A stretch of DNA of 64,000 bases from an uncultured Solirubrobacteraceae bacterium (GCA_963800905.1 CAWDCT010000009.1:80681-144680); one strand, 5' to 3'; shown: positions 17,827 through 30,775, numbered from the stretch's first letter. The notes: a model not told the origin generated them from the sequence alone. Numbers and translations are program-made.

Positions 17827-18392
17827 ATGCCTGTTCGAGCTCAACGTCCCGAACGTCCTGACGGTCGTCCGGATCCTGCTGATCCCGGTGCTCATCGCCC
17901 TGCTCCTGTCGGAGTTCGCGAGCGACACGCTGGCCGCCGGCGTGTTCATCCTCGCGAGCGTCACCGACGCGCTCGACGGCTGGCTGGCCCGCCGCCACAA
18001 GAAGCGAGTCGAACTTCGGCAAGCTGATGGACCCGCTGGCCGACAAGCTGCTGGTCACCAGCGCGCTCGTCTCGCTCGTCGCGCTCGACCGGCTACAGGC
18101 CTGGGTGGCGATGGTGATCATCGCGCGCGAGTTCGCCGTCACCGGCCTGCGCCAGCTGGCGGTCGAGCAGGGGCACGTGCTCGCCGCGAACACGTGGGGG
18201 AAGGTCAAGACCGTCCTCCAGATCGCGATGGTGCTCGCGCTCATCACGGTCGACGGGTCGCCGGCGTGGGTCGACGCGCTCGTCTACGTGACCGTCGCCG
18301 TCACCGTCTACTCGGGCGCCGACTACTTCTTCGGCTTCCGCGCGCTGATCAACGCAAGACAAGCGAGTGCTCGGGCAGCCAGCCGACAGTGA
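17827..18392 (+). pseudogene. pgsA: CDP-diacylglycerol--glycerol-3-phosphate 3-phosphatidyltransferase; about 2 frameshifts as given
   Basis: LFELNVPNVLTVVRILLIPVLIALLL...ILASVTDALDGWLARRHK (frame of ORF 16598..18511), then FGKLMDPLADKLLVTSALVSLV...MVIIAREFAVTGLRQLA... (ORF 18027..18392). CDP-alcohol phosphatidyltransferase motif DGxxARx8GxxxDxxxD. The ATG at 17827 is one nt out of frame with the first segment. Confidence 0.8.
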
Positions 18393-19413
18393 CGGCGTGC
18401 CCGATCTCCCAGCGGTCGTCGGACCGCGCGCGCTCGGTGTTCTGCTCGAGCGCGACGATCCTCGCCCCACCCTGGAGCTCGATGATCACCTGCGTCGCCG
18501 TCCCGACGTAGACGCGCTCGGCGACGGTGCCGGGGATCCTGACCATGGCGTCGGTGAGCTCGTCGAGCACGATCTTCTCCGGCCGCACGGAGAGCTGCAC
18601 GGTGGTGCCGTTCGCCGCATCGCCGGGCACCTTCGCCACGCAGTGCGCGCCGTTCGCGAGCCGCACGCCGCCGTCGTCGACCGTCCCCTCCATCAGGTTG
18701 GAGATGCCGATGAAGCCGGCCACGAACGGCTTCGCCGGCCGCTCGTAGACCTCCTCGGGCGACCCGCACTGCTCGACGACGCCGCCGTCCATGACCGCGA
18801 TCCGGTCGGACATCGCGAGCGCCTCCTCCTGGTCGTGCGTGACGTACAGGAAGGTGATGCCGACCTCGCGCTGGATCTCCTTGAGCTCGACCTGCATCTG
18901 GCGCCGCAGCTTGAGGTCGAGCGCGCCGAGCGGCTCGTCGAGCAGCAGCACCGCCGGGCGGTTCACCAGAGCACGGGCCAGGGCCACGCGCTGGCGCTGG
19001 CCACCTGAGAGCTGCCACGGCTTCGACTTCTCGCGCCCGGTGAGCTGCACCAGCTCGAGCGACTCCTTCACCCGCTCGGCGATCTCCTCCTTCGCCACCT
19101 TGCGGCGCTTGAGCCCGAAGGCGACGTTGCCCACGACGTCGAGGTGGTCGAACAGCGCGTAGCTCTGGAAGACCGTGTTGACGTTGCGCTTGTACGGCGC
19201 CACGCCGGCGACCGGCTCGCCGTCGAGGAAGATCTGCCCCTCGCTCGGCTGCTCGAAGCCGGCGACCATCCGCAGCGTCGTCGTCTTGCCGCAGCCGGAC
19301 GGCCCGAGCAGCGAGAAGAACTCGCCCTGGCGGATCGTCAGCTCGAGCCCGTCGACGGCGGTCGTGTCGCCGAACCGCTTGCTCACGCCCTCGAAGCGCA
19401 CCGCGTCGGTCAT
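18349..19413 (-). CDS. potA: Polyamine-type ABC importer, ATP-binding subunit
   Basis: Start MTDAVRFEGVSKRF at 19413. Walker A GPSGCGKTT, signature [15 protein letters not shown], Walker B LLLDEPLGALD, C-terminal TOBE-like domain. Single intact frame. ATGA overlap with potC. Confidence 0.9.
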   Translation of the reverse strand: MTDAVRFEGVSKRFGDTTAVDGLELTIRQGEFFSLLGPSGCGKTTTLRMVAGFEQPSEGQIFLDGEPVAGVAPYKRNVNTVFQSYALFDHLDVVGNVAFGLKRRKVAKEEIAERVKESLELVQLTGREKSKPWQLSGGQRQRVALARALVNRPAVLLLDEPLGALDLKLRRQMQVELKEIQREVGITFLYVTHDQEEALAMSDRIAVMDGGVVEQCGSPEEVYERPAKPFVAGFIGISNLMEGTVDDGGVRLANGAHCVAKVPGDAANGTTVQLSVRPEKIVLDELTDAMVRIPGTVAERVYVGTATQVIIELQGGARIVALEQNTERARSDDRWEIGHAVTVGWLPEHSLVLR

Positions 19414-29193: not shown

Positions 29194-30775
29194 ACGCCAT
29201 CGCCCAGCAGCTCGGCGAGGTCGGGCTGCCCGCGCCCGTCGCCGAGCTCGCCTCCCGCCGCTGGGACGCGGTGATCGTCGGCGGCGGCCACAACGGCCTC
29301 ACCGCGGCCGCCTACCTCGCCCGCGCCGGCAAGTCGGTGCTCGTGCTCGAGCGGCGCGAGCGCCTCGGCGGCGCGTGCACGCTCGAGCGGCCGTTCGCCG
29401 ACCCGCAGTACGTGGTCAGCCCGTGCGCGTACGTCGTCGGCCTGCTCGACGAGCTGGTCATCGAGGAGCTCGGACTCCGGCAGCGCGGCCTCCAGTTCCA
29501 CGTCGCCGACCCCAACCTCTGGGTCCCGTTCGACGACGGCACGAGCTTCGGCCAGTGGCTCGACGACGACCGCACGAACGCCGACCTCACCGCGCTCGGC
29601 GTGAGCGGCAAGGACCGCGAGGGCTACTGGGCCTACGAGCACCTCTTCGACGAGATCCGCCGCCGCCTGCGCACCGGCGAGCGCGACACCTGGGTCGGCG
29701 AGTCGCCCACTCGCGCCGAGATCGAGGAGCTGCTCCGAGGCGACCAGACGATGATCGACGTCGTCTTCGAGGCCAGCATGGCCGAGGTGCTCGACGACCA
29801 CATGGACGACCAGCGGCTCAAGGACGCGCTGTTCGGCCAGGGGATCATCGGCGCCTGGGCCGGCCCGAAGGACAAGGGCACCGCGTCGATCAAGCTGATG
29901 CACTTCCAGGGCGACCTCGAGGGCCAGGGTCCCGTGTGGGGCTACGTGCGCGGCGGGATGGGCATGGTCAGCTTCGCGATCGCCGACGCCGCCCAGGAGG
30001 CCGGCGCCACGCTGGCCACCGGCGTCCCGGTCGGCGAGATCCTGCCCGGCGAGGGCGTCGTGCTCGAGGACGGCACGCGGATCCACGCCGACACGGTCAT
30101 CTGCAACGCCGACCCCAAGCGCCTGCTGAGCATGGTCAGCGACCTGCCGAGCGAGTTCGAGCAGCGCCTGCGAGGACTGGAAGATCCGCAGCCCCGTCGT
30201 CAAGTTCAACGCCTCCCTCACCCGCCTTCCCAACTGGACCGCCGCGCCCGGCCAGGACTTCCCCGCGCGCGCGACCGTCGACGTCACCACCGGCCTCGAC
30301 GACGCCCAGCGCGACTTCGAGCGCTGCACGCGCGGCGAGGCGGCGGTCGGCTTCGGCGAGATCTACGTCCAGACCGGCTACGACCCCACGCCGGCCCCGC
30401 CGGCAAGCACCTGATGAGCGTCTTCGGCCAGTACGCGCCGTACGACTTCGACTGGGCCAACCGCCGCGACGAGGTCGCGCAGCCAGTTCATCGACCTGAT
30501 CGCCCGCTTCGCGCCCGACTTCCCCGACGCGCTCGAGCACTACGAGGTGCTCGGCCCGCCCGACATCGAGCAGCGGATCGGCCTCACCGCGGGCAACATC
30601 TTCCAGGGCGAGACGATGCCCGACCAGATGTGGGAGCACCGCCTCTGCGTCTCGCACGCCGGTGCCCGGGTTGTACATGTGCGGCGCCGCAACCCACCCG
30701 GCGGGCAGCGTGATCGCCCTCAACGGCCGCAACGCTGCGATGGCCGTCCTCGAAGACGCCCAAGTTCTCACCTGA
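29190..30775 (+). pseudogene. CrtI/phytoene-desaturase-family NAD(P)/FAD-dependent oxidoreductase, paralog 2; about 3 frameshifts as given
   Basis: GTG 29190 (GTGA overlap) gives [62 protein letters not shown]...WGYVRGGMGMVSFAIADAA... (ORF 28887..30713 frame). ...LTAGNIFQGETMPDQMWEHR.... The end ...GLYMCGAATHPAGSVIALNGRNAAMAVLEDAQVLT* was read by hand (TGA 30773-30775). Confidence 0.8.

Follow-up and report, generated by a model that had tools for sequence, protein, structure and literature searches.

Rieske non-haem-iron oxygenases of group V are recognized by a hallmark Cys-X-X-Cys pair and by features of the iron site, and they are subdivided by the residue at the position of Tyr203 in CntA. 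Group Va enzymes, among them carnitine, choline and benzalkonium oxygenases (CntA, choline monooxygenase, OxyBAC), have a Tyr or Phe at this position, whereas the group Vb demethylases Stc2 (stachydrine), GbcA and BmoA (glycine betaine) have an Asn (PMC7948474, PMC10952381). CntA also accepts gamma-butyrobetaine (PMC7948474). BcoAB of S. meliloti is a gamma-butyrobetaine:CoA ligase (PMC8364193), and the carnitine cluster of R. etli p42c encodes BKACE, carnitine 3-dehydrogenase, an acyl-CoA dehydrogenase (ACAD), a ligase of the ADP-forming ACD family, carnitinyl-CoA dehydratase and an ABC importer. Here we describe an 11-gene cluster at positions 18349-30775 of a 64,000-nucleotide stretch of DNA (the window) from an uncultured Solirubrobacteraceae bacterium, in which a Rieske oxygenase is encoded together with two TetR regulators, a PotABCD-like importer, two CrtI-like flavoproteins, an ACAD and an ADP-forming acyl-CoA synthetase (ACS). 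With a probability that we put at about 0.6, the cluster is one functional unit of the Solirubrobacterales, in which two divergent operons would break down a cationic, probably trimethylammonium-type amine by way of oxidative C-N cleavage and CoA thioesters. By analogy, it may be regarded as a hybrid of CntA-type oxygenation and the CoA module of the bco genes, placed behind a Pot-type importer.

The window (G000:C9:80681-144680; GC content ~72%) belongs to a 4.49-Mb long-read metagenome-assembled genome (MAG), G000, which has 16 contigs, is 61.8% complete and has uncultured Solirubrobacteraceae MAGs of the 'MFD' long-read series as its closest named relatives. Genes were identified by Pfam and NCBIfam searches, and those on the plus strand were delimited by the intact orthologues of a related genome, G007 (locus L011), that is 89% identical to the window and collinear with it over 14.2 kb (Table 1). 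These searches and a reading of the gene junctions bore out the gene content, gene order and stop/start overlaps listed in a preliminary description of the window; the minus arm, counted there as an eight-gene operon, has seven genes. The cluster falls outside the GbcA, PotD and BetI equivalogs, the complete bco pathway and the CrtI family.

The oxygenase and its companion proteins

The Rieske motif CXH...CXXH is present in the window protein (51 bits to PF00355) and in 77 of 80 homologues, the three exceptions being frame-broken copies from long-read assemblies. Among proteins of solved structure, the best matches were CntA (130 bits), 3N0Q and Stc2 (114 bits), compared with at most 90 bits for alpha subunits of aromatic dioxygenases. 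The iron-site motif VENYSECLHCPGVHP, which the preliminary description had quoted correctly, aligns with VDNYMECYHCGPAHP of CntA. Within it, E-C-L-H-C-P-G-V-H aligns column by column with CntA (E205, H208, H213), covering the bridging Glu and both His residues, and the iron-ligand Asp (D323 of CntA) was aligned in a weak second high-scoring segment pair (HSP). The group V Cys-X-X-Cys pair adjoins the iron site in all 80 homologues. The bit scores, this pair and the bridging Glu place the protein, as had been proposed, with the quaternary-amine oxygenases and not with the aromatic-ring dioxygenases. The position of CntA Y203 is occupied by Tyr in the window protein, and among the 80 homologues by Tyr in 72 and Phe in 8. 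By the published criteria the enzyme is thus assigned to group V and is Va-like; the Va placement uses the published motif criterion, homologues from plasmid records being annotated generically ('aromatic ring-hydroxylating dioxygenase subunit alpha'). The Va-type Tyr makes N-demethylation less likely than cleavage of the C-N bond or oxidation at a trimethylammonium group.

Like CntA/CntB (YeaW/YeaX), the oxygenase is of the alpha-only kind, no arrangement of the cluster having a gene for a beta (small) subunit, and it has the CXH...CXXH motif, the Cys-X-X-Cys pair, the bridging Glu, the two His, the aligned Asp and the pi-cation Tyr in common with CntA. It differs from CntA in that the identity is ~30% and falls mostly within the N-terminal 215 residues, in the lack of an adjacent CntB-type reductase gene and in a wholly different gene context. 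Group Vb enzymes belong to the same group V family, and Stc2 and 3N0Q align with the window protein over both domains, but they carry an Asn where all 80 homologues have Tyr or Phe. The best NCBIfam model, the GbcA equivalog NF058607, scored 182 against a cut-off of 670. A reductase gene of the FNR/Fer2 type was not found near any copy of the cluster, consistent with the earlier remark that no partner is encoded nearby; matches to PF00175/PF00111 lie on other contigs in G007, a further genome (G015) and Solirubrobacter soli, and fused Fer2-FNR open reading frames (ORFs) are present elsewhere in cluster-bearing genomes, one of them in S. soli at G031:C7:387651-388550.

The importer resembles PotABCD/PotFGHI in having all four components, namely a substrate-binding protein (SBP), two permeases and a PotA-type ATPase that scores above the potA subfamily cut-off. 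An intact orthologue of the SBP (L021:6778-7887) matched E. coli PotD (1POT) with 150 bits. It retains 8 of 13 residues that we take, from the PotD structure literature, to be the spermidine contacts (W34, E36, Y37, D168, E171, W229, D257 and Y293), and the same list gives T35A, Y85E, W255G and Q327F as changes in the pocket. The retention of the acidic anchors E36, D168, E171 and D257 makes import of a polycation look more probable than import of a simple zwitterionic betaine, and we picture the binding site as a polycation pocket with altered walls. The SBP departs from the PotABCD/PotFGHI proteins in these pocket-lining residues, in a PotD equivalog score of 119, far short of the cut-off of 582, and in the occurrence of variant clusters with a second SBP.

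The ACS orthologue of G007 (659 aa) has CoA_binding_2, Succ_CoA_lig and ATP-grasp_5 domains and matched 8WZU (204 bits), 9Y43 (190 bits) and the dimethylsulfoniopropionate (DMSP) lyase DddX (7CM9, 179 bits) in the PDB, its nearest relatives being ADP-forming 4-hydroxybutyrate and 3-hydroxypropionate CoA ligases and DddX. It shares with DddX the fused ACD architecture over nearly the full length, and DddX provides an earlier example of an onium carboxylate being activated with CoA; the score is close to those of the 4-hydroxybutyrate and 3-hydroxypropionate ligases, so no specific relationship to DddX is indicated. The ACAD, in which the catalytic Glu motif is present, belongs to a generic short/medium-chain type, and it scored 128 with the CaiA model (cut-off 540). 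As in the rhizobial bco region of R. etli p42c, the ACAD gene directly precedes the gene for a fused ACD-family ligase and lies beside an ABC importer; because the R. etli genes stand in the same order, this is the bcoC-bcoA/B pattern. Identity to the R. etli pair is 37% for the ACAD and 32% for the ligase, no better than to other members of the two families. Unlike the rhizobial region, the present cluster has a Rieske oxygenase and two CrtI-like proteins and an SBP of another family, and genes for a crotonobetainyl/carnitinyl-CoA hydratase or dehydratase, carnitine (3-)dehydrogenase or BKACE were found in none of its three arrangements (types A, B and C, below). Inside the ACS gene, a palindrome of 40 nt in the window corresponds to an in-frame insertion of ~60 nt in G007 and is absent from G015, an insertion polymorphism; a small palindromic element seems to be tolerated within the ATP-grasp part of the enzyme.

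The two flavoproteins have the FAD-binding amine-oxidase-type fold and resemble CrtI/CrtO, the only proteins to which they are similar over the full length (CrtI 4DGK, 64 bits). The G007 orthologue of CrtI-1 (547 aa) gave 56 bits with PF01593 and 256 with the CrtO model (cut-off 1000), and that of CrtI-2, which is ~37% identical to CrtI-1, gave 80 and 145 bits. In contrast to true CrtI proteins, they remain below the cut-off of crtI_fam (TIGR02734; 137 and 89 bits against 238) and lie outside a carotenoid context, the flanks of the cluster containing no carotenoid genes. A homologue search with CrtI-1 returned more than 7,900 scoring relatives with generic names only, and the family is very common in soil metagenomes. 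We also considered whether the CrtI-like proteins might supply the NAD(P)H reductase that is missing, which is unlikely because the only motif of this kind that they contain is an N-terminal FAD-binding Rossmann motif. One database homologue (P0044, 936 aa) is a CrtI-like protein apparently fused to the C-terminal domain of an ACAD; it is probably an indel artefact of another long-read MAG, since the two genes overlap by ATGA.

Gene arrangements and the shared control region

Co-conservation was surveyed by tblastn with the 11 cluster proteins against 80 loci that contain a homologue of the Rieske gene, and the set was counted in the 39 Thermoleophilia loci whose flanks extend for 8 kb or more on both sides. 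The full set is present in 32 of these 39, in three gene orders, and the Rieske gene stands alone in four. The co-conservation that the preliminary description had left to be checked was therefore found. Its word 'orphan' holds for the searchable literature and fails for the distribution, the cluster being widespread in Thermoleophilia. Its remark that it knew of no described pathway with this gene set agrees with our literature searches, which covered the gene combination, Rieske enzymes with polyamines and group V enzymes in Actinobacteria and returned no such pathway; the genes in an M. smegmatis paper that touched on all of these subjects are unrelated.

Type A, the arrangement of the window and of ~16 Solirubrobacteraceae MAGs, has CrtI-1, ACAD, ACS and CrtI-2 reading in that order away from Rieske, TetR, TetR, SBP, potB, potC and potA. 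A sub-variant carries another PotD/F-like SBP (27% identical) and other permeases, and G007 has both versions. Type B, found in the cultured species Solirubrobacter soli, S. taibaiensis and S. deserti, begins with Rieske, CrtI-1, the importer and a TetR-4HBT fusion gene, which are followed by a TetR gene divergent from ACAD, ACS and CrtI-2. In type C, from Conexibacter, Solirubrobacterales and Thermoleophilales MAGs, ACAD and ACS diverge from Rieske, CrtI-2, two TetR genes and the importer, with CrtI-1 5 kb off; these loci often have an additional class-III aminotransferase, a canonical flavin amine oxidase and a second ACAD. The Rieske stop and the start of a CrtI-like gene share 4 nt in types B and C and also in Gemmatimonadota (L096, L095, L098), where the coupled pair is found beside genes for a GcvT aminomethyltransferase, a sarcosine-oxidase-like DAO flavoprotein, an APC permease, a pyridoxal phosphate (PLP) decarboxylase and an S9 peptidase.

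Several individual loci merit mention. One of the Gemmatimonadota loci (L096) has two Rieske paralogues. G007 has two complete copies of the cluster (L011 on C1 and L015/L029 on C4), whose enzyme genes are ~82% identical and whose SBPs and permeases are 26-53% identical, as though a single set of catabolic genes had been joined to two importers that differ in specificity. On contig C10 of G006 (L013/L025), a lone Rieske orthologue of 79% identity adjoins a pgsA-like gene that also flanks the cluster in the window; the importer, the TetR genes and the entire plus arm are gone, as expected if the cluster was deleted and the oxygenase kept.

Within each arm of the window, the genes are tightly joined. 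On the minus strand, ATGA overlaps link Rieske with TetR1 (23247-23250), TetR2 with potD (22097), potB with potC (20174-20177) and potC with potA (19410-19413), and on the plus strand the junctions are ATGA at 26076, TAGTG at 27229 and GTGA at 29190-29193, the last comprising the ACS stop and the CrtI-2 start. The overlap of ~25 nt between potD and potB, which had been proposed from a guessed potB start, recurs with its VD(G/A)DQGGLSGRF start in clean relatives (L021, L067, L027) and can be accepted.

The two arms diverge from a spacer of 63 nt (24369-24431), of which a 27-nt core (24386-24412) is near-invariant in 16 loci. The core includes TTGACT...TAGGGT, with the ATG 8 nt further, and an imperfect palindrome around CAATTG. 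Of the GACTACAA repeats that had been noted in the spacer, the second copy is conserved and the first is not. The core occurs once in G000 and solely at the cluster copies in G007 and G015; as a probe for further regulon members it returned no other site in these three genomes and none in S. soli. TANNNT boxes are located 8 nt before both divergent starts (TAGGGT on the plus side and TAGTCT on the minus side), which suggests that the transcripts of both arms may be leaderless.

The two regulators are 37% identical to each other and are BetI-type TetR proteins by their domain composition (TetR_N with PF13977, at 79.3 and 75.8 bits; cut-off 27). They do not reach the BetI equivalog TIGR03384, for which TetR1 scored 77 and TetR2 72 against a cut-off of 201. 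Regulators of the BetI type are typical of betaine loci. In cultured Solirubrobacter (L038:16839-17795, L034:16762-17706), the second BetI-type TetR is a protein of 318 aa that ends in a fused 4HBT (hotdog) thioesterase domain, an unusual architecture that hints at an acyl-CoA ligand. As part of the reading given at the outset, and with similar confidence, we propose that both arms are controlled by the two BetI-type repressors at one shared candidate operator.

Proposed route and alternatives

A route can be drawn in which the PotABCD-like importer would take in a positively charged, polyamine-like amine. The group Va Rieske enzyme would then bind its quaternary (trimethyl)ammonium group through the pi-cation Tyr and hydroxylate the carbon adjoining the nitrogen, with electrons from a reductase encoded elsewhere in the genome. 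The C-N bond would break, probably to give trimethylamine and an aldehyde as with CntA. The two CrtI-like flavoproteins of the amine-oxidase fold may oxidise intermediates at the amine or aldehyde level, and the resulting short omega-substituted acid, or a carboxylate-bearing substrate itself, would be converted to its CoA thioester by the ADP-forming ligase. The ACAD would desaturate this thioester at the alpha,beta position, in the manner of bcoA/B-bcoC in gamma-butyrobetaine metabolism, and general beta-oxidation would follow. Gene identities, catalytic motifs, family placement, co-conservation and the common control region are observations; the substrate class, the order of the steps and the roles of the flavoproteins are inferred. 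The preliminary description had likewise proposed uptake of an amine or quaternary-amine carboxylate and its oxidation via an acyl-CoA; the co-conservation and the placement of the Rieske protein support that proposal, which is still an inference as far as biochemical function goes.

Several observations weigh against this route. No enzyme of the cluster reaches an NCBIfam equivalog cut-off, and the substrate is therefore assigned by analogy only. The pathway as drawn is incomplete: genes for an aldehyde dehydrogenase, an enoyl-CoA hydratase and a reductase are absent from the cluster in every arrangement. The roles given to the two CrtI-like proteins are conjectural. The C-terminal half of the Rieske protein, which holds the substrate pocket, scored 2.8 bits with CntA, compared with 28 for the Vb-type 3N0Q and 25 for Stc2, and the Va assignment depends mainly on one motif position. 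Finally, a PotD-type SBP is, to our knowledge, not the usual binder of betaines.

Among the alternatives, we regard as possible, at odds well short of even, an undescribed aerobic release of trimethylamine from a compound that is neither carnitine nor choline, for which trimethyllysine, delta-valerobetaine and a methylated polyamine are candidates. The invariant association of a group Va Rieske oxygenase with two CrtI/PYROXD2-like flavoproteins, an ACD ligase and an ACAD would represent this route, and the flavoproteins would in this case be a new amine- or onium-oxidising class that works directly with the Rieske enzyme.

A more specific version of the preferred reading is a pathway for gamma-butyrobetaine, carnitine or a similar C4-C5 trimethylammonio-carboxylate, in which the ligase and the ACAD would act first, as true equivalents of BcoA/B and BcoC, and a CntA-like removal of trimethylamine would follow. 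The identical order of ACAD and ACD ligase in the carnitine cluster of R. etli (identities of 37% and 32%), the acceptance of gamma-butyrobetaine by CntA (PMC7948474), the Va Tyr and the BetI-type regulators are all consistent with such a pathway. Nevertheless we consider it unlikely, given that hydratase, carnitine dehydrogenase and BKACE occur in none of the three arrangements, that the SBP is a PotD-type polycation binder with all four acidic anchors and not of the betaine type, and that the rhizobial pair is no closer in identity than generic members of the two families, with the CaiA score of 128 against 540 pointing the same way.

Somewhat less probable still is the breakdown of ordinary or N-methylated polyamines of the spermidine/putrescine type, with the CrtI-like proteins as polyamine oxidases and the Rieske enzyme as an N-dealkylase or N-demethylase. 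The importer with its polyamine-type acidic anchors would suit this substrate, as would the matches of both CrtI-like proteins to PF01593 (flavin amine oxidoreductase), the omega-aminotransferase and canonical amine oxidase that are added in Conexibacter-type loci, and the GcvT and DAO demethylation genes beside the Gemmatimonadota versions. On the other hand, the Rieske motif has the Tyr of group Va and not the Asn of the known demethylases, the full-length likeness of the flavoproteins is to CrtI/CrtO and not to polyamine oxidases, and polyamine breakdown leaves the CoA ligase and the ACAD with no explained role.

The two arms might also be adjacent without being related, one combining an amine importer with an oxygenase and the other lipid- or isoprenoid-type flavoenzymes with fatty-acid activation. 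This might be argued from the carotenoid enzymes that give the best scores to the CrtI-like proteins and from the generic families of the ACAD and ACS, but it is very improbable when these families have remained linked through three rearrangements, translational coupling joins the Rieske gene to either CrtI-like gene in types B and C, one unique control region is common to both arms and no carotenoid genes lie nearby.

Reading frames in the long-read assembly

The four plus-arm genes and their junctions are present as the preliminary description had listed them, but not as continuous ORFs: 5 of the 11 cluster genes (potD, CrtI-1, ACAD, ACS and CrtI-2) are broken in the assembly of the window, which had been overlooked. 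Relative to G007, gaps of a length that is not a multiple of three number 8 in CrtI-1, 8 in ACAD, 16 in ACS and 4 in CrtI-2; the plus arm as a whole has 37, including 27 insertions of one base in the window, compared with 5 in the minus arm. A plot of GC content at third positions changes phase along the plus arm far more often than four genes would account for, and once within potD. The problem extends well beyond the cluster. There are 202 such gaps across the window, unrelated genes of which are spread over 3-5 frames, and random 64-kb samples from every contig of G000 are fragmented to a comparable degree. Essential genes of G000 are equally affected, being divided among contiguous frames (rpoC three, gyrA three and alaS six).

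The rpoB gene of G000 is intact, and that of G007 (91% complete; L103/L105, G007:C4:837436-840755) is distributed over at least five frames, from which we conclude that consensus indels affect essential genes even in 'high-quality' MAGs of the long-read series. In a comparison of 19 assemblies, all 11 genes were free of frame switches in isolates and short-read MAGs; the long-read MAGs showed sporadic ones, at sites that differ between MAGs, and they are most numerous in the window. For potD, a frameshift that is programmed or shared was considered and rejected, since the break is one missing base in the window, the extra base of G007 lies 45 nt from it and the frame of G015 continues across both sites. 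The genome-wide breaks, the shattered essential genes, the clean isolates and short-read MAGs and the differing break sites together identify the breaks, by comparison of the assemblies, as consensus errors of long-read MAGs and not gene decay, and the genes as intact in the organism.

It is most improbable that the breaks are real and the plus arm a set of decaying pseudogenes in the source organism. Such decay would account for the concentration of 37 of the 42 frame-changing gaps of the two arms in the plus arm, with a nearly clean minus arm, and for the fact that an identical base adjoins only 28 of the 104 single-base insertions of the window, which are thus not classic homopolymer errors. 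It is contradicted by the equally shattered rpoC, gyrA and alaS of the same assembly, by the splitting of unrelated genes in the window and throughout the genome, by break sites that vary among long-read MAGs and are missing from isolates and short-read MAGs, and by the in-frame pieces, which are 92-97% identical to the G007 proteins with a third-position GC still near 1.0. With ~3 frame-breaking indels per kb in places, ORF-level observations on this assembly need to be checked against relatives.

Table 1. Features of the cluster, with positions counted from the first nucleotide of the window.
Feature	Position	Strand	Basis and remarks
PotA-type ABC ATPase, 354 aa, intact	18349-19413	-	PF00005 and TOBE_2; TIGR01187 (potA subfamily) 385.6 against cut-off 355.6
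PotC-like ABC permease, 255 aa, intact	19410-20177	-	PF00528, 54.5 bits
PotB-like ABC permease, 280 aa, intact	20174-21016	-	PF00528, 52.5 bits
PotD/PotF-like lipoprotein SBP, in two frames through a 1-nt deletion near 21718	20992-22100	-	Two ORF pieces
TetR regulator 2, BetI-type C-domain	22097-22684	-	PF13977 75.8 bits; PF00440 49.2 bits
TetR regulator 1, BetI-type C-domain	22714-23250	-	PF13977 79.3 bits; PF00440 42.2 bits
Rieske non-haem-iron oxygenase alpha subunit, 373 aa, intact; group V, Va-type motif	23247-24368	-	PF00355 and PF00848
Conserved 27-nt core, candidate TetR operator over promoters	24386-24412	.	Near-invariant in 16 loci
CrtI-like (COG1233, amine-oxidase-fold) flavoprotein 1; scrambled frame between 24825 and 24920, frame shift at ~25303	24432-26079	+	tblastn with intact G007 protein, two frames
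ACAD; single-base insertions at ~26222, 26270, 26549 and 26597	26076-27231	+	G007 orthologue 376 aa, one frame
Fused ADP-forming (ACD-family) ACS, in at least six frames	27231-29193	+	Six HSPs in differing frames
Palindromic insertion of 40 nt within the ACS gene	28889-28928	.	Also in G007, not in G015
CrtI-like flavoprotein 2; frame breaks at ~30173, 30400, 30483 and 30649	29190-30775	+	G007 orthologue 527 aa

Implications

The Solirubrobacterales are among the most abundant and least studied Actinomycetota of soil. Intact copies of the cluster in the cultured strains Solirubrobacter soli DSM 22325, S. taibaiensis and S. deserti make the proposed function directly testable. If the reading is correct, the cluster would be a new source or sink of trimethylamine in soil, and the chemistry of group V Rieske enzymes would reach beyond carnitine, choline and betaines. 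It would also provide a function for a large flavoprotein family that may include human PYROXD2, which is an mQTL (metabolite quantitative trait locus) for trimethylamine and dimethylamine in humans (PMC3169529). Should the flavoproteins prove to be the new class of amine- or onium-oxidising enzymes that we consider a tentative possibility, they would offer the first biochemical handle on this human orphan enzyme, their putative relative.

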